From IMG/VR virus record IMGVR_UViG_2563366943_000015: 21,542 nt of DNA, one strand, 5' to 3'. Shown one piece after another: positions 4,229 through 21,132 of the stretch. The stretch comes from a virus. Taxonomy: Duplodnaviria > Heunggongvirae > Uroviricota > Caudoviricetes. The translations under genes were made by a program, and so were the position numbers. Under the pieces are notes generated by a model that saw only the letters and a list, made by a program, of their open reading frames with translations, ran no database searches and was not told where the DNA came from. Position 1 is the stretch's first letter. Each line of letters starts with the position of its first letter.

Positions 4229-4582
4229 GCCCACAAGAAAGCCCCTCCGGAGAGGGGCTAAAGCCGCGTATCTGTATCATCATGCACATGGTGCCGGGTG
4301 CCTCCCGGTAAGTTCAGCCCGGTGCCACTAAACCCGCGTCATTCTCGTTTTGATAATCAGAGATTATACCGTCACCAGTCGCCCCTCCGCTCAGGGGGAT
4401 TCACCATGCCAGTTTCTTTTAACAAACTCCCCGCAAACCAGACAACAGTCAACCGCCTGAATTGTGAGGTATTTAAAAATTTCTCCAGATAACTGATACC
4501 CGGCTAACAGTCTGGCGTTTTCTTTTTCAGCAACGGGAAAGCAACAACCACCACACCCACCAGCCGCCAATTTACCACAAAT

Positions 4583-5566: not shown

Positions 5567-5853
5567 AAATAACCTTCCTTTCTCCAGATTTCTTGTGTGC
5601 GAAAAACACCTTCTGCATGCATCAGGCGTAATTCTTCTTTGGTGTAATCGCTGGTTTTTACCCGCCCGTCGATTAAATCGTGGCATGAGCTGCAGGCAAT
5701 CGCTGCCTGCATATCGTGTGGTTTTGTCGCTGTTCCGCACGTCCCCGCCAGCCTGTAATGCGCCAGCACAGAAGTTTCGGGATTGTGATTGCAGTAGCCA
5801 GAAATTCTGACGGTGCACATCTGCCCCCGCGCCGCTTTACGTAAATCCACCAT
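5563..5853 (-). CDS. Cys-rich small phage protein, 96 aa (DUF1364-like), coupled to Q
   Basis: Eight Cys/His in CTVRISGYCNHNP...CGTATKPHD...CSSCHD; its stop overlaps the Q start (ATGA) and its start overlaps the upstream stop (TAATG). Confidence 0.55.
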   Translation of the reverse strand: MVDLRKAARGQMCTVRISGYCNHNPETSVLAHYRLAGTCGTATKPHDMQAAIACSSCHDLIDGRVKTSDYTKEELRLMHAEGVFRTQEIWRKEGYL

Positions 5854-6452
5854 TACGCAAACTCCAGTAACTGTACGGCCACATTTTCGACTTCCTCCGG
5901 AGAGGAAAATTTACGGAACAGGATCCAGTTCCACAGCACATTCAGTACAGATTTATAAACCTGCTGAAACTCGGTTTCGTCCATGTTCGCAAATGCGATA
6001 GATTTTGCCCTGCGCCCACGACTACCATCAGGATAAATATGCTCGGTGTAAAATCCGGCCTGAATGGTTACCCACTCGCGGAAAGCCTCAAACGACTTTA
6101 GCAATGCCGTATCCCGGGTTCTGCGTGTCGCAACTGTATTCAGATATTGCTCTGCGGCTTCGCTCAGAGCTGGCGTATGTTCCCGACCTACTGATTCGCA
6201 CAGGTACTCAACGAAACCTGATACCAGTTCTCGTTCTCGAGGCGTGATCACCCCACCGCTTGGAGTCCAGTAATCGAATCCCAGTTGCAGGAGTTTAAAA
6301 AAACGCTTGTGAAATGCGTAGTTACGCACACGCTTAAAGTCTGCGTGTATCCACTCACCTATTTTGATTTGATGCAAAAAATCGCAACTCTCCGGCGTCG
6401 CCGGGAGAAGTAATCCGGAAGAGGTTTGTTTGACCAGTTGTATATGCGCCAT
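5853..6452 (-). CDS. Conserved lambdoid-prophage protein, 199 aa (YdfU/DUF1367-like by position)
   Basis: ATG at 6452 with RBS GGAGA 6 nt upstream; translationally coupled to the next gene. Confidence 0.55.
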   Translation of the reverse strand: MAHIQLVKQTSSGLLLPATPESCDFLHQIKIGEWIHADFKRVRNYAFHKRFFKLLQLGFDYWTPSGGVITPRERELVSGFVEYLCESVGREHTPALSEAAEQYLNTVATRRTRDTALLKSFEAFREWVTIQAGFYTEHIYPDGSRGRRAKSIAFANMDETEFQQVYKSVLNVLWNWILFRKFSSPEEVENVAVQLLEFA

Positions 6453-6523: not shown

Positions 6524-6775
6524 CTAACAGGATGCTCTGACTCGCAATTCATCCGGCAGTTTATCATTTCCCATAATGTCACTTACCCTCATCGGTAAAA
6601 AAATTGCCTTTCGACCATTACGATACATCATTGATTTTGGGATTTCAGGGAAGTAATCCATTTCGACTATAACTGACAGGTCATCACGACGTATGACTGC
6701 GTATTTGCTACTAAATAGTTTCTTTATTTTTTCCACGATGCCTCCAGGTTTATAAGTACAAAAGGTTATATCCAC
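6524..6775 (-). CDS. Hypothetical protein, 83 aa (position equivalent to rem in Qin-type prophages)
   Basis: ORF starts with GTG and has no in-frame ATG upstream; identity not verifiable. Confidence 0.25.
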   Translation of the reverse strand: MDITFCTYKPGGIVEKIKKLFSSKYAVIRRDDLSVIVEMDYFPEIPKSMMYRNGRKAIFLPMRVSDIMGNDKLPDELRVRASC

Positions 6776-6921: not shown

Positions 6922-6944
6922 AAAAAACCCGCCGAAGCGGGTTT
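6922..6944 (-). terminator. Intrinsic terminator of the hok transcript
   Basis: Minus strand: aaacccgc-ttcg-gcgggttt followed by a T run; 70-90 nt downstream of the hok stop. Confidence 0.6.
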
Positions 6945-7011: not shown

Positions 7012-7167
7012 TTACTCCTCAGGTTCGTAAGCTGTGAAGACAGCGACCTCCGTTTGGCCGGTTCGGATTCGTACCTCGCAGAGGTCTTTCCTCGTTACCA
7101 GTGCCGTCACTATGACGGTTAAACAGATGACGATCAGGGCGATTAGCATCGCCTTTTGCTGCTTCAT
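7012..7167 (-). CDS. hok: Hok-family type I toxin (HokD/RelF-like), 51 aa
   Basis: MKQQKAMLIALIVICLTVIVTALVTRKDLCEVRIRTGQTEVAVFTAYEPEE matches Hok/Gef family from memory; RBS AAGGAG 9 nt upstream; an in-frame upstream ATG at 7224 gives a 19-codon mok-like extension. Confidence 0.85.
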   Translation of the reverse strand: MKQQKAMLIALIVICLTVIVTALVTRKDLCEVRIRTGQTEVAVFTAYEPEE

Positions 7168-7727
7168 AGCCTGCTTCTCCTTGCCTTTCGGCACGTAAGA
7201 GGCTAACCTACGTGTGTAGAGCATAGATATGGCCTCAGATTAATGTTAAGCGTCTTGCCGGACGCGTAATGTTAACTGGGGCTTTTCTCTATCTGCCTTT
7301 TGGTGTTCATGCCTGAGACAGATAGCCTCAAGCACCCGCAGTTATTCTACTTAACTAAGATTTCCCCGCAAACCGTTTTTGTCCGGCACAGTAAATATCC
7401 AACTAAACCAATGGCGTTCGCTGTATTTACCGCCAGTATTCAATGCACATGACCGCCATGAACACCCCTAAAAAAAGGGCATTTATATGTCCAAACATTA
7501 ATATCAAAACATCAATTTTTTCCATATACCTTGCTGTGAAGATGATGGGCATACATGATGCGAACAACCAGAACGCAACAAACAAAAACTGCAATGCGTT
7601 TTTCATTATTCCCCCCTACAATCAATGTGCAATAACATTTAAACACACCTCAATTTGGCCGGACATATAAATATCTAAACCAGAAAAAATCACTTACATA
7701 GCGTTACAAACTCTTTAGTCTAAATAT

Positions 7728-8416: not shown

Positions 8417-8591
8417 TTTGCTCTTCCTCTTCGTCTTTTATTTCGTGATATGAGTAATTGCAGTAGTTAAAGAAAATATCTTTAGCTTCATCCTGTATTT
8501 CATCTGGTGTTGCATCATCATCCACTTCGAATTCATCCTCGAAATCTCCACCGGCTATTCCCGTTTCAATAATTATTTTGAATTTTCGCAT
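8409..8591 (-). CDS. Small very acidic protein, 60 aa
   Basis: About 20 of 60 residues are Asp/Glu (FEDEFEVDDDATPDEIQDE...KDEEEEQNG). Confidence 0.5.
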   Translation of the reverse strand: MRKFKIIIETGIAGGDFEDEFEVDDDATPDEIQDEAKDIFFNYCNYSYHEIKDEEEEQNG

Positions 8592-8684
8592 TTCACTACC
8601 GCCCTTTCGGACGGCCTCCTGATGTTCTGAGGGTGCAGAAATCCCTCCGGTTAAGGATTAAATTTTTAACAGAGCTAAATTTAA

Positions 8685-9041
8685 TTATTCAGTTCTGGAT
8701 TTTGTCGCCCTGCGTATCCGCGCTTTCGCGTTACGCTCAATCTGAATTAGCTTTTCTATATTTTTTCGCCTTTCCCGCTCCTCCTGGCGCAAGTGCCTTA
8801 CATCATCTGCCAGTCTGGTTTCTCTTTTCGCCACAGAGAGCATCCAGTCAAATGGCTCCACAACTGCACCGCAGATTTTACAGCGGACCTGACGCTCTTT
8901 TTCGTCAACCCGGACAGAGGCGTGATGACAATATGGTCTTTCCGATGGCTCATAAAGAAAATTAACCTGATTACGAGGGTCATCCTCTTTTACCGGAAAT
9001 AAAACGATATTGCTTAACTCATCCTCTGGTTTTATTTCCAT
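8685..9041 (-). CDS. Hypothetical protein, 118 aa, with a Cys/His cluster and a basic C-terminus
   Basis: CHH...C...CxxC then an Arg/Lys-rich tail; RBS AAGGAGAGG before the ATG at 9041. Confidence 0.5.
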   Translation of the reverse strand: MEIKPEDELSNIVLFPVKEDDPRNQVNFLYEPSERPYCHHASVRVDEKERQVRCKICGAVVEPFDWMLSVAKRETRLADDVRHLRQEERERRKNIEKLIQIERNAKARIRRATKSRTE

Positions 9042-12580: not shown

Positions 12581-13006
12581 TCAATGCACTACGACAGAAT
12601 CGCCGGGCGACCCACCACCGCTGAAATGTGCTTTCCGGTAAACGGCCTGGACTGCATCATCATGCGCATCAATTGCCGTACTCAACGCTTCCTGCGCCGC
12701 CAGTAATGCACGGCGTTCCAGGGTATCGAAGATGCAGAGTCGGTGACGCAGCTCGCGCGGAAGAATTGCCAGAACCGCAGGGATCAGTTTCTGAATTTTT
12801 TCCCTTTGCGCTTTCGTTTCACCTTTCAACCAACGGTGATAGATATTCTGCTGATTGTTCCAGTCCTTGCCTGGTATAAGGGGCAATTCGCCGCCCCCCC
12901 CCTGGCGCAGATATTCTTCAGTAATTGCGTTAGCGACCCACGCCTGCCCTTTTTCGGCTGCCAGGGCTAACAACACTGATTCGATGTGCTTATGCCTGAT
13001 TTTCAT
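12581..13006 (-). CDS. ydaT: YdaT-like protein (CII-like regulator, reported as toxic), 141 aa
   Basis: MKIRHKHIESVLLALAAEKGQAWVANAITEEYLRQGG... resembles Rac YdaT from memory; ATGA overlap with the Cro-like gene. Confidence 0.7.
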   Translation of the reverse strand: MKIRHKHIESVLLALAAEKGQAWVANAITEEYLRQGGGGELPLIPGKDWNNQQNIYHRWLKGETKAQREKIQKLIPAVLAILPRELRHRLCIFDTLERRALLAAQEALSTAIDAHDDAVQAVYRKAHFSGGGSPGDSVVVH

Positions 13007-13245
13007 GAATCAACCGCTCCTATGCTGTTTTCGCTATGCTTACCGTCTGGGGGGAATACATCGTCAAGTCCACAATGAGCGCCAAGCCGATTAAGGGTAG
13101 AAACAATTTTTCTGCACTCCTCTAGTCCAGGGGTACGAAAATTTGCTTCGTAATTTGCCAGTCGGCTTTGTATCCACCCTAACTGAACAGCAAGTTGTCT
13201 TTGAGACAGCCCAAGCTGTTTTCGATATGTTGAAATTTTGTTCAT
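13003..13245 (-). CDS. ydaS: Cro-like HTH (XRE) regulator, YdaS-like, 80 aa
   Basis: HTH QLGLSQRQLAVQLGWIQSRLANYE; divergent from the repressor; RBS GGAGG 6 nt upstream. Confidence 0.75.
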   Translation of the reverse strand: MNKISTYRKQLGLSQRQLAVQLGWIQSRLANYEANFRTPGLEECRKIVSTLNRLGAHCGLDDVFPPDGKHSENSIGAVDS

Positions 13246-13341
13246 TGAAAACCTCCGATGACAATTTTAAACACACCTTGTGTTATATGGTCAAGCTATT
13301 TTGTGTTTTATGTAAATCACGATTCGTGATACAAGGATGCA
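13246..13341. promoter_or_regulatory. Immunity-region operator/promoter segment (OR-like) between the Cro-like and repressor genes
   Basis: Two 15-bp palindromes: AACACAcctTGTGTT (13270..13284) and ATCACGattCGTGAT (13316..13330); minus-strand -35 TTGACC with a -10-like TTTAAA/TAAAAT element for the Cro-like gene. Confidence 0.6.
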
Positions 13342-13761
13342 ATGGAAAAAGAAAACGAAAAAATTGCCGCTAGTAGGCTCAATGACAAAATTGCAATGCG
13401 TCTTAAAGAGCGCAGGCAGAAGCTTGGTTTATCTCAAGGAAAACTTGCTGAAATCTGCGGATGGACGCAATCGCGTATAGGTAACTATGAGGCGGGCAGC
13501 AGAAATGTTGGAGTGCATGACGCTGTCATATTGGGAAAGGCACTTGGCATATCTCCTCCTGAGCTCCTCTTTGGAGAACAGGAATCTTCTGAATTGTGGT
13601 TAAATGAATCCCAACGAAAACTTCTTGAGTTGTTTAACCAGCTACCGGGCTCAGAACAACAACGAATGATTGAGCTATTTGAAGTCCGGCTAAAAGAAAT
13701 CGATGAGTATGTAGAAAAATATTTGAGAGGCAGGCTTAAAGATAATCCCCCACCGGAGTAA
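13342..13761 (+). CDS. racR: Prophage repressor, RacR-like, HTH (XRE), 139 aa
   Basis: N-terminal HTH LGLSQGKLAEICGWTQSRIGNYE; divergent arrangement with the Cro-like gene; no LexA-like peptidase motif seen. Confidence 0.7.
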   Translation: MEKENEKIAASRLNDKIAMRLKERRQKLGLSQGKLAEICGWTQSRIGNYEAGSRNVGVHDAVILGKALGISPPELLFGEQESSELWLNESQRKLLELFNQLPGSEQQRMIELFEVRLKEIDEYVEKYLRGRLKDNPPPE

Positions 13762-13791
13762 TGATCTTGCTATCACAGTAATATGCCAATC

Positions 13792-13816
13792 AGCCCGCTA
13801 TCAGCGGGCTTTTTTG
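13792..13816 (+). terminator. Intrinsic terminator after the repressor gene
   Basis: agcccgc-tatca-gcgggct followed by TTTTT. Confidence 0.6.
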
Positions 13817-13844
13817 TACCATCATCATATGACACCCACCACAA

Positions 13845-13886
13845 AACACATTCCGTGTTGACACAAGAAAACGTATTGTGTTTAAT
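13845..13886 (+). promoter_or_regulatory. pL-like early-left promoter with overlapping operator
   Basis: -35 TTGACA (13858..13863), 17-bp spacer, -10 TTTAAT (13881..13886); operator-like AACACAttcCGTGTT (13845..13859) overlaps the -35. Confidence 0.6.
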
Positions 13887-14066: not shown

Positions 14067-14219
14067 ATGGATACTATCGATCTTGGCAACAACGAATCTC
14101 TGGTATGTGGCGTGTTTCCCAATCAGGACGGCACATTCACCGCCATGACGTATACCAAAAGCAAAACGTTTAAAACCGAAGCTGGCGCACGTCGCTGGCT
14201 TGCCAGAAATACTTGCTAA
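14067..14219 (+). CDS. ydaF: YdaF-like small protein, 50 aa
   Basis: MDTIDLGNNESLVCGVFPNQDGTFTAMTYTKSKTFKTE... resembles Rac YdaF from memory; RBS GAGG. Confidence 0.55.
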   Translation: MDTIDLGNNESLVCGVFPNQDGTFTAMTYTKSKTFKTEAGARRWLARNTC

Positions 14220-14401: not shown

Positions 14402-14627
14402 TGCTATGTGTAGTCTTTGGCGGCATCAGTTCTACTCCGTGGCTGCCCTGCCGCCCCTTTTTAAAGTGAATTTTGTGATGCAGTGAATGCGGCTAAGCGC
14501 ACGCGGCACAGTTAAAAGCATCAGTGTTATGGGTGGATTATCCGGCGTTAATTGTTAACTGGTTAACGTCACCTGGAGGCACCAGGCACCGCATCGACAA
14601 AATTCATTTGTAAAAATGGAGATAATT

Positions 14628-18990: not shown

Positions 18991-19197
18991 ATGACAAAAA
19001 TTATGAGATATGACGATGTTAAACCATGTCCGTTTTGTGGTTGTCCATCTGTTACGGTGAAAGCAATTTCAGGATATTACCGGGCAAAATGCAACGGATG
19101 CGAATCCCGAACTGGCTATGGTGGAAGTGAAAAAGAAGCACTCGAAAGATGGAATAAACGAACTACTGGAAATAATAATGGAGGTGTTCATGTATAA
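18991..19197 (+). CDS. ralR: Restriction-alleviation protein RalR/Lar, 68 aa
   Basis: MTKIMRYDDVKPCPFCGCPSVTVKAISGYYRAKCNGCESRTGYGGSEKEALERWNKR matches Rac RalR from memory. Confidence 0.75.
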   Translation: MTKIMRYDDVKPCPFCGCPSVTVKAISGYYRAKCNGCESRTGYGGSEKEALERWNKRTTGNNNGGVHV

Positions 19198-19378
19198 AAT
19201 TACTGCCACTATTGAAAAGGAAGGTGGCACTCCTACTAACTGGACAAGATATTCAAAATCTAAATTAACGAAATCAGAATGCGAAAAAATGCTCTCAGAA
19301 AAAAAAGAAGCAGGCGTTTCCAGAGAGCAGAAAGTAAAGCTGATAAATTTTAATTGCGAGAAACTTCTGTCCTCGTGA
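19190..19378 (+). CDS. ydaC: YdaC-like small protein, 62 aa
   Basis: MYKITATIEKEGG...; RBS GGAGG upstream; overlaps the ralR 3' end. Confidence 0.55.
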   Translation: MYKITATIEKEGGTPTNWTRYSKSKLTKSECEKMLSEKKEAGVSREQKVKLINFNCEKLLSS

Positions 19379-20808: not shown

Positions 20809-20939
20809 TTTTAACGTAAATGGATTGTTAAATGTATTTTGGTTGTGATATAACCAAAAAAGACCGGAATACAGAAATTCGAGTAAATTTCGGGGAATTT
20901 CGGGAAGACGTTTGCAACTGATTGATTTTAAATACAATT

Positions 20940-21042
20940 AAAAAAAGACCGAATACGATTCCTGTATTCGGTCCAGGGAAATGGCTCTTGGGAGAGAGCC
21001 GTGCGCTAAAAGTTGGCATTAATGCAGGCTTAGTTGCCTTGC
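20940..21042 (-). ncRNA. sdsR: sRNA SdsR (RyeB)
   Basis: Minus strand reads GCAAGGCAACTAAGCCTGCATTAATGCCAAC...CCCTGGACCGAATACAGGAATCGTATTCGGTCTTTTTTT, matching the SdsR sequence as I remember it, including the terminator hairpin plus T7. Confidence 0.7.
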
Positions 21043-21132
21043 CCTTTAAGAATAGATGACGACGCCAGGTTTTCCAGTTTGCGTGCAAAATGGTCAATAA
21101 AAAGCGCGGTGGTCATCAGCTTAAATGTTAAA

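Follow-up and report, generated by a model that had tools for sequence, protein, structure and literature searches.

Predicted lambda-like operators and a candidate GfoA-family antirepressor in the immunity switch of a lambdoid Escherichia coli prophage

How is a prophage induced if its repressor lacks the peptidase domain through which lambda CI is inactivated? This question is raised by the immunity region at positions 13,246 to 13,886 of the virus record IMGVR_UViG_2563366943_000015 (IMG/VR), a stretch of 21,542 nucleotides (nt) that was analysed at its full length and is called the window below. The region contains divergent genes for a Cro-like protein and for a repressor of 139 amino acids (aa), with related palindromes on either side of the repressor gene. 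We consider it probable that this is the switch of a lambdoid E. coli prophage of mosaic Rac/Qin/Gifsy type, which combines lambda-like right and left operators (OR and OL) with a repressor that is inactivated differently from lambda CI, likely by an antirepressor of the GfoA family. This account draws on sequence, statistics, conservation, covariation, homology and synteny, from which we infer repressor binding, transcription start sites, activation from the middle operator OR2, antirepressor activity and its trigger.

The first-pass annotation of the window, made from its letters and a list of open reading frames (ORFs), had described three related 15-bp palindromes, and all three lie where it placed them (OR1, OR3 and OL1 in Table 1). 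They share the pattern A-CAC-N5-GTG-T (ANCACNNNNNGTGNT), and the exact pattern has no further copy in the window. With 0.32 matches expected in 21.5 kb, three were observed, a number that none of 100 shuffled sequences reached. The first two palindromes are situated between the divergent genes for the Cro-like protein and the repressor, as had been reported. A total of three sites turned out to be too low, since a search allowing mismatches to AACACANNNTGTGTT located two more, OR2 and OL2, which brings the array to five. We then scored 21,528 window positions with a symmetric weight matrix derived from 11 sites of other loci only; its four best positions are the starts of OL1, OR1, OL2 and OR3, in this order. 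The start of OR2 is exactly 23 bp from those of both OR1 and OR3, the sole position in phase with both neighbours, and a 12-nt direct repeat at the same spacing joins OR1 and OR2. OL2 is likewise spaced 23 bp from OL1. In relatives, an AACACA half-site occurs another 23 bp further on, and no such third OL site is present in the window or in its Salmonella relative. The five sites thus appear to form a lambda-like array with a tripartite OR and two sites at OL.

Comparison with other genomes links the palindromes to the repressor. A genome-wide search with an alignment of repressor homologues yielded 20 loci. Among them, the loci of Citrobacter youngae, C. braakii and Dryocola, and one on a contig labelled Sphingomonas, encode repressors 61–66% identical to that of the window, in which the recognition helix GW(A/T)QSRIGNYE is kept. 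Counted from the repressor ATG, their copies of the motif are at -73, -50 and -26, and two more follow at about +95 and +118 past the stop codon. At the matching positions in a prophage of Salmonella, the repressor of which is 83% identical, the sequences are AACACAattTGTGTT, AAGCTGtttTGTGTT, ATCACGcatCGTGAT and AACACAtttTGTGTT; with this prophage included, the downstream pair is at about +90 and +113. Taken site by site, OR1 is kept at -72/-73 from the repressor ATG in five relatives (loci L005, L006, L007, L010 and L031), the OR2 position (-49/-50) is occupied by a site in five of five, and the OR3 position (-26) is kept in all. OL1 is found 84–97 nt past the repressor stop codon in relatives, with the OL2 offset occupied as well. 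Where the recognition helix is the same, differences between operators are for the most part confined to the three central bases and the flanks, in accordance with the expectation for a dimeric helix-turn-helix (HTH) protein. Relatives with a different recognition helix, or a different HTH domain altogether, also have 15-bp palindromes at about -73 and -26 and past the gene; their arms are different ones (GACAC/GTGTC, TTCAC/GTGAA, TAAAC/GTTTA and TTTAC/GTAAA). That the arms vary with the DNA-binding domain while the positions stay fixed is good evidence that the palindromes are the operators of the repressor.

Could the palindromes instead be chance repeats, or sites of another protein such as a host factor or the YdaT/cII protein encoded nearby? 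Proteins of the YdaT family do bind inverted repeats, of the form TTGATT-N6-AATCAA (PMC9986795). The motif found here is unlike that site, and the excess of exact matches over expectation, the ranks one to four given by an independent matrix and the covariation of the arms with the recognition helix, at positions fixed relative to the repressor gene, make such an explanation very improbable.

The operators overlap the promoters that we propose for this region. Downstream of the repressor gene, the earlier annotation had proposed a strong promoter of the PL type, TTGACA-17-TTTAAT, whose -35 hexamer is overlapped by the third palindrome. Both hexamers are present at this spacing, and the overlap with OL1 amounts to 2 nt. 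A corresponding PR promoter can be proposed in front of the GGAGG and ATG of the Cro-like gene. The geometry of the two is mirrored: in each case there is a 2-nt overlap of one operator with the -35 hexamer, and a second operator occupies the spacer and extends 2 nt into the -10 hexamer. At the PR position, relatives have TTGACx-17-TTTAAT, and after the repressor gene TTGACx-17/18-TTTAAT/TTTAAA is kept in four loci (L005, L006, L023 and L031). The intrinsic terminator that separates the repressor gene from PL has its counterpart in relatives, where a comparable hairpin follows the gene. For the repressor gene itself, we predict a promoter PRM with an extended -10 element. Elements of the form TGnTAnnAn are located 6–7 nt before the repressor ATG in nine of nine relatives inspected, among them TGgTAGAAT, TGgTAAAAT, TGaTAAGAT and TGgTAAAAA. 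An extended -10 so near to the ATG predicts a leaderless repressor mRNA, which would put OR2 at -42 from the start site and OR3 over the -10. The lambda cI transcript from PRM is leaderless too. All three promoter proposals are based on conserved hexamers and geometry.

From these features, we suggest the following mechanism. Dimers of the 139-aa repressor would recognise the 15-bp AACAC-N5-GTGTT sites through their N-terminal HTH domain, and occupation of OR1/OR2 and OL1/OL2 would block PR and PL. Given its distance from the predicted PRM start, OR2 probably activates repressor synthesis, and OR3 probably serves negative autoregulation as well as shut-off by the Cro-like protein. Over the HTH, the latter and the repressor share 45% identity, and their recognition helices are near-identical (GWIQSRLANYEA versus GWTQSRIGNYEA), so that the Cro-like protein should compete for the repressor's sites. 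In the Salmonella relative, the first 60 residues of the Cro-like protein are nearly identical; no similarity to DicC was found. Induction would most likely follow when a small antirepressor of the GfoA family binds the repressor and removes it from DNA.

This last step depends on the nature of the repressor. All of its Pfam matches are to HTH families (HTH_3 at residues 21–75), and Peptidase_S24 was not matched down to an E-value of 0.1. The AlphaFold model, computed from 47 sequences with a mean predicted local distance difference test score (pLDDT) of 88.8, comprises eight helices and no strand. Foldseek returned for this model the HTH domains of C.AhdI, P22 C2, 434 and lambda only. In a sequence search of the PDB, residues 16–80 were matched and the C-terminal module was not; a match to SinR/SinI (1b0n) was too loose to be used (root mean square deviation of 8.1). 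Thus, the earlier description of a helical C-terminal half with no Ser-Lys peptidase signature is borne out, and an S24 fold in the C-terminus, looked for with Pfam, AlphaFold and Foldseek, was not found.

Homology extends through the full length of the repressor to GfoR of Gifsy-1 (32% identity over 125 aa, E 8e-19) and to DicA of E. coli K-12 (29% over 129 aa, E 3e-15), and the C-terminal 35 aa are 46% identical to GtgR. The gfoA and gfoR sequences were recovered from Salmonella prophages in IMG/VR via the primers printed in PMC3121763 (le144 for gfoR). RacR of K-12 was considered as the nearest relative and rejected (BLASTP E 2.4). GfoR, GfhR and GtgR are dimers that are not cleaved on induction and are stripped from their operators by small antirepressors (PMC3121763). 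Mitomycin C does not induce DicA, which has no Ala-Gly cleavage site, and relief comes from the Qin antirepressor Rem (PMC10448788). With its 139 aa, an N-terminal HTH, homology through the C-terminal module and no S24/Ala-Gly/Ser-Lys apparatus, the repressor of the window belongs with GfoR, GtgR and DicA, and neither with the S24-type (lambda CI/LexA-like) nor with the RacR-type repressors. The lack of an S24 domain and the presence of a C-terminal helical module as in GfoR, GtgR and DicA argue that induction does not proceed via RecA-stimulated self-cleavage, as the first-pass annotation had also supposed. By analogy with GfoR and GtgR, the repressor most likely stays intact on induction and is displaced by an antirepressor.

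If the repressor were instead inactivated by RecA-stimulated autocleavage in the manner of lambda CI, its HTH would be in familiar company, as it is 47–57% identical to the HTH of the S24-type CI proteins of mEp213, mEpX1 and VT1-Sakai. The rest of the protein speaks against this: it is short, modelled as all-helical and without an S24 match, its only Ala-Gly falls inside the HTH domain, and its homologues are the uncleaved GfoR and a DicA that mitomycin C does not induce. We therefore give autocleavage next to no credence. The C-terminal module (LLELFNQLPGSEQQRMIELFEVRLKEIDEYVEKYLRGR; window 13594–13758) is the most conserved part of the repressor family, above the DNA-binding domain. In other loci (L013–L024), at least two unrelated HTH domains are found attached to this module (LFxQLPExEQ...RLKEIDxYVEKYLRGR). 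Together with the resemblance of the window's HTH to that of S24-type CI proteins, this indicates domain shuffling between cleavable and non-cleavable repressors.

Which protein could displace the repressor? Following the suggestion in the first-pass annotation that an antirepressor gene be sought elsewhere in the prophage, we found a candidate 6.6 kb from the repressor gene, a 70-aa ORF of the GfoA family (Table 1). Its family profile was aligned with Gifsy-1 GfoA at an hhalign probability of 97.9% (E 4e-13), and the family member of Citrobacter phage Chris1 is 42% identical to GfoA (E 4e-17). The ORF is positioned directly upstream of a DUF1367 gene, the homologue of irsA, which is the slot of gfoA and also of gftA in Gifsy-2 (where the identity of gftA was confirmed by primer pp864). 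A small GfoA-family gene outside the immunity region and directly upstream of an irsA homologue is the arrangement of the Gifsy-type module. In the PHROG database, the ORF falls into PHROG 1813; the ORF, Rem and GftA are assigned to three different PHROGs, each listed with ‘unknown function’.

Co-occurrence supports this assignment. Among 50,697 phage records, both a GfoA-family gene and a repressor with the C-terminal module are present in 12 distinct phages (Chris1, vB_Apl-pPE4, pAEv1818, Kp4865-4, SPN3UB, FSL SP-016, SEN34, SW-37, mEp237, ST974-OXA48phi18.2, ST846-OXA48phi9.2 and PHB10). In SPN3UB and FSL SP-016, the C-terminal module is the only part that the repressor has in common with that of the window. 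Conversely, mEp213, mEpX1 and VT1-Sakai, whose S24-type CI proteins have the HTH alone in common with it, are absent from the GfoA-family matches in these records. This pattern supports a functional pairing of the C-terminal module with GfoA-family proteins. We relied on the comparison of phages across genera because the IMG/VR loci from E. coli are mostly near-identical prophages and thus not independent; those loci, among which the exceptions have a RacR-type, an S24-type or a divergent DicA-like repressor, were not used as co-occurrence evidence. Judged from its sequence and setting, the ORF is probably an antirepressor of the GfoA type. PHROG 1813, a ‘hypothetical’ family, would then likely consist of GfoA-type antirepressors, with the C-terminal module of the repressor as their likely target.

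A second question concerns the signal to which the candidate would respond. In Chris1, SPN3UB, pAEv1818 and Kp4865-4, the family member directly follows dinI, and a LexA box close to the consensus comes before them; in these phages and in Gifsy-2, the box ahead of the dinI-antirepressor unit has 2–3 mismatches. The phages in which dinI and a LexA box precede the gene are from Salmonella, Citrobacter and Klebsiella, with one recorded from Aeromonas. In the window, dinI is absent, and a hokD/sok cassette occupies the position of dinI and the LexA box, so that SOS coupling is not evident. Direct LexA control of the antirepressor gene, as in the Gifsy-type module, was not found in the window. A loose search of the window for CTG-N10-CAG gave 10 matches, none of them convincing. 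The best LexA-like 20-mer, CGCTGTATTTACCGCCAGTA (7419–7438), is located upstream of hok/sok and has one core mismatch. We rejected it as a functional box on account of its 7 mismatches in total, its GC-rich centre and its overlap with the stop codon of a 59-aa membrane-like ORF (7427–7606, minus strand); it could be a degenerate remnant or a chance match. The candidate antirepressor gene appears to have lost LexA control.

A number of findings weigh against the switch as we propose it. At the operators, OR2 is a weak match to the matrix, and its status as an operator comes from position and conservation. At the promoters, a consensus promoter scan recovered neither PR, PL nor PRM. The proposed -10 hexamers of PR and PL (TTTAAA and TTTAAT) are without the usual A at position 2, for which reason the PL-like promoter was missed by the scan, and in the PRM hexamer TACAAG the last base is G. 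For T as the second base of a -10 hexamer, the E. coli trp promoter (TTAACT) offers a precedent. At the candidate antirepressor, direct similarity of the ORF to GfoA by BLASTP is weak (E 2e-4), and BLASTP against Rem and GftA revealed no similarity. The ORF is preceded by a terminator (6925–6944), and the sequence upstream of it revealed no sigma-70 promoter. The entire window contains no CTGT-N8-ACAG and no credible LexA box, and among the 80 IMG/VR loci with this ORF, mostly from E. coli with a few of Salmonella type, 75 lack a LexA-like box within 10 kb. Moreover, the ORF (94–100% identity) is also found beside RacR-type, S24-type and divergent DicA-like repressors, and its linkage to this repressor in E. 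coli is thus not strict.

Several of the same findings, namely the upstream terminator, the lack of a detectable promoter or LexA box and the association of the ORF with unrelated repressor types, would fit a switch that is built as described and induced without this ORF, through instability of the repressor, stochastic bistable flipping or antirepressors provided in trans by co-resident prophages. DicA is derepressed spontaneously, by heat or by urea, with no need of Rem or RecA (PMC10448788), the bistable switch of CP-933P does not react to mitomycin C (PMC8630535), and the antirepressor of Fels-1 induces Gifsy-2 (PMC3121763). The coincidence of GfoA-family genes with this repressor type in phages of several genera argues for an involvement of the ORF, as does its state in E. 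coli, where it is intact and 93–99% identical in dozens of prophages. On balance, we deem induction independent of the ORF unlikely and favour displacement of the repressor by the GfoA-family candidate. Somewhat differently, in the E. coli lineage the GfoA-family gene might be uncoupled from SOS and woken by a non-SOS signal, or only in trans by the LexA-controlled antirepressors of co-resident prophages, a possibility that we put forward tentatively. Antirepressors acting in trans would then target the conserved C-terminal ‘receiver’ module that is common to repressors with differing DNA-binding domains. A lineage without the usual LexA wiring bears on the induction of prophages by DNA-damaging antibiotics.

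Table 1. Positions in the window of the genes, operators and proposed regulatory elements of the switch and of the candidate antirepressor locus
Feature	Position	Strand	Evidence and remarks
IrsA/DUF1367 homologue, synteny marker of the antirepressor slot	5853..6452	-	53% identical to Gifsy-2 STM1020, E 5e-75
Candidate antirepressor, 70-aa ORF of the GfoA family with GTG start and GGAGG	6527-6736	-	Profile, BLASTP, synteny
hokD/sok cassette	7012..7337	-	ORF and RefSeq hokD; Rfam sok 117 bits (7162-7337)
YdaT-family gene (cII equivalent), second gene of the PR operon	12581..13006	-	Pfam YdaT_toxin E 5e-11; RefSeq ‘toxin YdaT family’
Cro-like 80-aa HTH_3 protein	13003..13245	-	Pfam HTH_3 E 7e-10
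Proposed PR: -35 TTGACC (13294..13289), 17-nt spacer, -10 TTTAAA (13271..13266)	13266..13294	-	Putative; read from sequence
OR1, perfect palindrome AACACAcctTGTGTT	13270..13284		In PR spacer and -10; 19.1 bits, rank 2 in window
OR2, weak site AAGCTAtttTGTGTT	13293..13307		Overlaps PR -35; centre -42 from predicted PRM start; 5.2 bits, rank 14 of 21,528
OR3, palindrome ATCACGattCGTGAT	13316..13330		Overlaps predicted PRM -10; 10.4 bits, rank 4
Predicted PRM, extended -10 TGaTACAAG	13327..13335	+	Putative; 6 nt before repressor ATG
Immunity repressor, 139 aa: N-terminal HTH_3 and conserved helical C-terminal domain (LLELFNQLPGSEQ...RLKEIDEYVEKYLRGR)	13342..13761	+	Pfam HTH_3 E 2e-13
Intrinsic terminator after the repressor gene	13792-13810	+	8-bp stem with 6 GC pairs, then T run
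OL1, AACACAttcCGTGTT	13845..13859		2-nt overlap with PL -35; 20.5 bits, rank 1
PL-like promoter: TTGACA (13858-13863), 17-nt spacer, TTTAAT (13881-13886)	13858..13886	+	Toward DUF1391, DicF-like RNA, kilR, ydaE, recET
OL2, AAAACGtatTGTGTT	13868..13882		In PL spacer and -10; 16.1 bits, rank 3
DUF1391 gene, first gene of the PL operon	14067..14219	+	Pfam DUF1391 E 5e-30

The surroundings of the switch are those of a lambdoid prophage. A segment of 1.4 kb around it is 100% identical to chromosomal prophage DNA in several E. coli isolates, and at least 80% of this segment is present in 153 of 5,426 complete E. coli genomes. The immunity type thus occurs in at least this number of genomes, including those of enterohaemorrhagic E. 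coli O103 and O111, and also in Salmonella. With its operator consensus AACAC-N5-GTGTT, its five sites and the proposed PR, PRM and PL promoters, it is an immunity type that had not been annotated before. In the annotated genome NZ_LR898874, the corresponding region is a lambdoid prophage adjoining yebY, with portal, terminase, lysis, Q-like and nin-type genes on one flank and DUF1391, kilR, ydaE, recE, recT, ralR, xis and int on the other. The genes at the switch are arranged in the order DnaC-like, O-like, YdaT-family (minus strand), Cro-like HTH_3 (minus strand), a gap of 96 bp, repressor (plus strand), terminator and DUF1391 (plus strand). The YdaT-family and Cro-like genes are thus read leftward and the repressor gene rightward, followed by its terminator and the PL-like promoter. 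This layout is the standard one of a lambdoid prophage immunity region, in agreement with the first-pass annotation, which had read the segment as an immunity region, and the order from the YdaT-family gene to DUF1391 continues through kilR, recE, recT and xis to int. YdaT is regarded as the functional equivalent of CII (PMC9986795). Within the YdaT-family gene, a run of nine C (12890–12902, minus strand; G on the coding strand) codes for GGGG in the cII-like product. Homopolymers this long are prone to slippage, by which the gene could be switched off.

Several RNA genes are recognisable in the window. A homologue of the small RNA (sRNA) DicF is found at 14405–14456 (plus strand), between DUF1391 and kilR in the PL operon (Rfam RF00039; 60.9 bits, gathering score 48). 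In the leftward operon, this Rac-like prophage thereby pairs DicF of Qin type with the cell-division inhibitor KilR of Rac type, and both are presumably under the control of the 139-aa repressor. Directly past the integrase gene, at 20936–21080, is the host's sRNA pair SraC/RyeA and SdsR/RyeB, which places the prophage at ryeA/ryeB-yebY. The antitoxin RNA RalA (19196–19374, minus strand; 220 bits) is encoded opposite ralR, and an STnc100 RNA (4229–4438, minus strand; 148 bits) is located near the Q-like region.

Three further records related to the window deserve mention. The prophage of strain MSB1_4I (locus L001) is otherwise identical to the window and has an IS2 inserted between the replication genes and hokD (L001 14343–15571), which the window (about 8524–8685) does not have. 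In Actinobacillus phage vB_Apl-pPE4 (PP818812.1; deposited host Actinobacillus pleuropneumoniae), parts of the immunity region are 99.8% identical and the protein of the antirepressor-candidate ORF is 94% identical, compared with merely 63% for the repressor; it could be a mosaic relative, or its host assignment could be doubtful. The contig NZ_JBNNOB010000016.1 (L010/L023), labelled Sphingomonas sp., carries an enterobacterial-type copy of the switch that is divided over the contig ends, and may be a circular contig or a contamination.

When the switch is compared with that of lambda, whose OR, OL and PRM are well established, the overall architecture is similar. In both, the repressor and cro genes diverge, OR is tripartite with a centre spacing of 23–24 bp, PL follows the repressor gene on the same strand, and the middle operator would be at -42 of a PRM, predicted here to be leaderless. 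Unlike lambda, the repressor of the window has no S24 domain and hence no autocleavage, the sites measure 15 bp instead of 17 bp, two OL sites were detected, and no rex genes or N gene were recognised in this prophage.

The systems of Gifsy-1 and of Gifsy-3, GfoR/GfhR with GfoA/GfhA, are similar in the repressor and in the placement of the genes. Their repressors are likewise short and consist of an HTH and a C-terminal module of the form LFxQLPxxE...RLKE.D..EKY..GR. The repressor gene is transcribed away from a cro-like gene and precedes a left operon with recE/recT, and a GfoA-family gene is located directly upstream of irsA/DUF1367. The prophage of the window differs in its DNA-binding domain and operators, and its antirepressor gene is placed behind hok/sok and a terminator rather than dinI and a LexA box. 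Moreover, its antirepressor belongs to a divergent E. coli/Salmonella subfamily without the GYRVT tail.

The DicA/DicC switch of Qin matches in the order of cro-like gene, repressor gene, DUF1391 (ydfA in Qin, where the order is dicC-dicA-ydfA), DicF RNA and cell-division inhibitor. Qin too has operator palindromes in the intergenic stretch and around the promoter that follows the repressor gene, and a small gene after hokD, in the relative position of rem. The DicA operator Oc is a 20-nt inverted repeat, and two further operators were proposed from sequence only (PMC3441716). With Oc = TTGTTAGTCATAACTAACAA, the operators of the two switches differ, and no similarity to Rem could be detected in the ORF that follows hokD. 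Whereas Qin is cryptic, morphogenesis and lysis genes are present in the genome that matches this prophage.

PaaR2/YdaS/YdaT of CP-933P in E. coli O157:H7 form an analogous bistable switch, in which the repeats at OR and at PL are equally spaced (PMC8630535). Going by this published description, the two switches are alike in having a non-cleavable CI analogue, a Cro analogue and YdaT as the cII analogue, as well as equally spaced operators that overlap PR and PRM and recur at PL. They differ in that no paaA2-parE2 toxin-antitoxin pair follows the repressor gene here, and in the operators, which in CP-933P are repeats of the type GTTTAGTAA. The class of switch is therefore one already described for Gifsy, for DicA/DicC/Rem of Qin and for PaaR2 of CP-933P, and what is new in this prophage is an immunity specificity within the Gifsy/DicA class.

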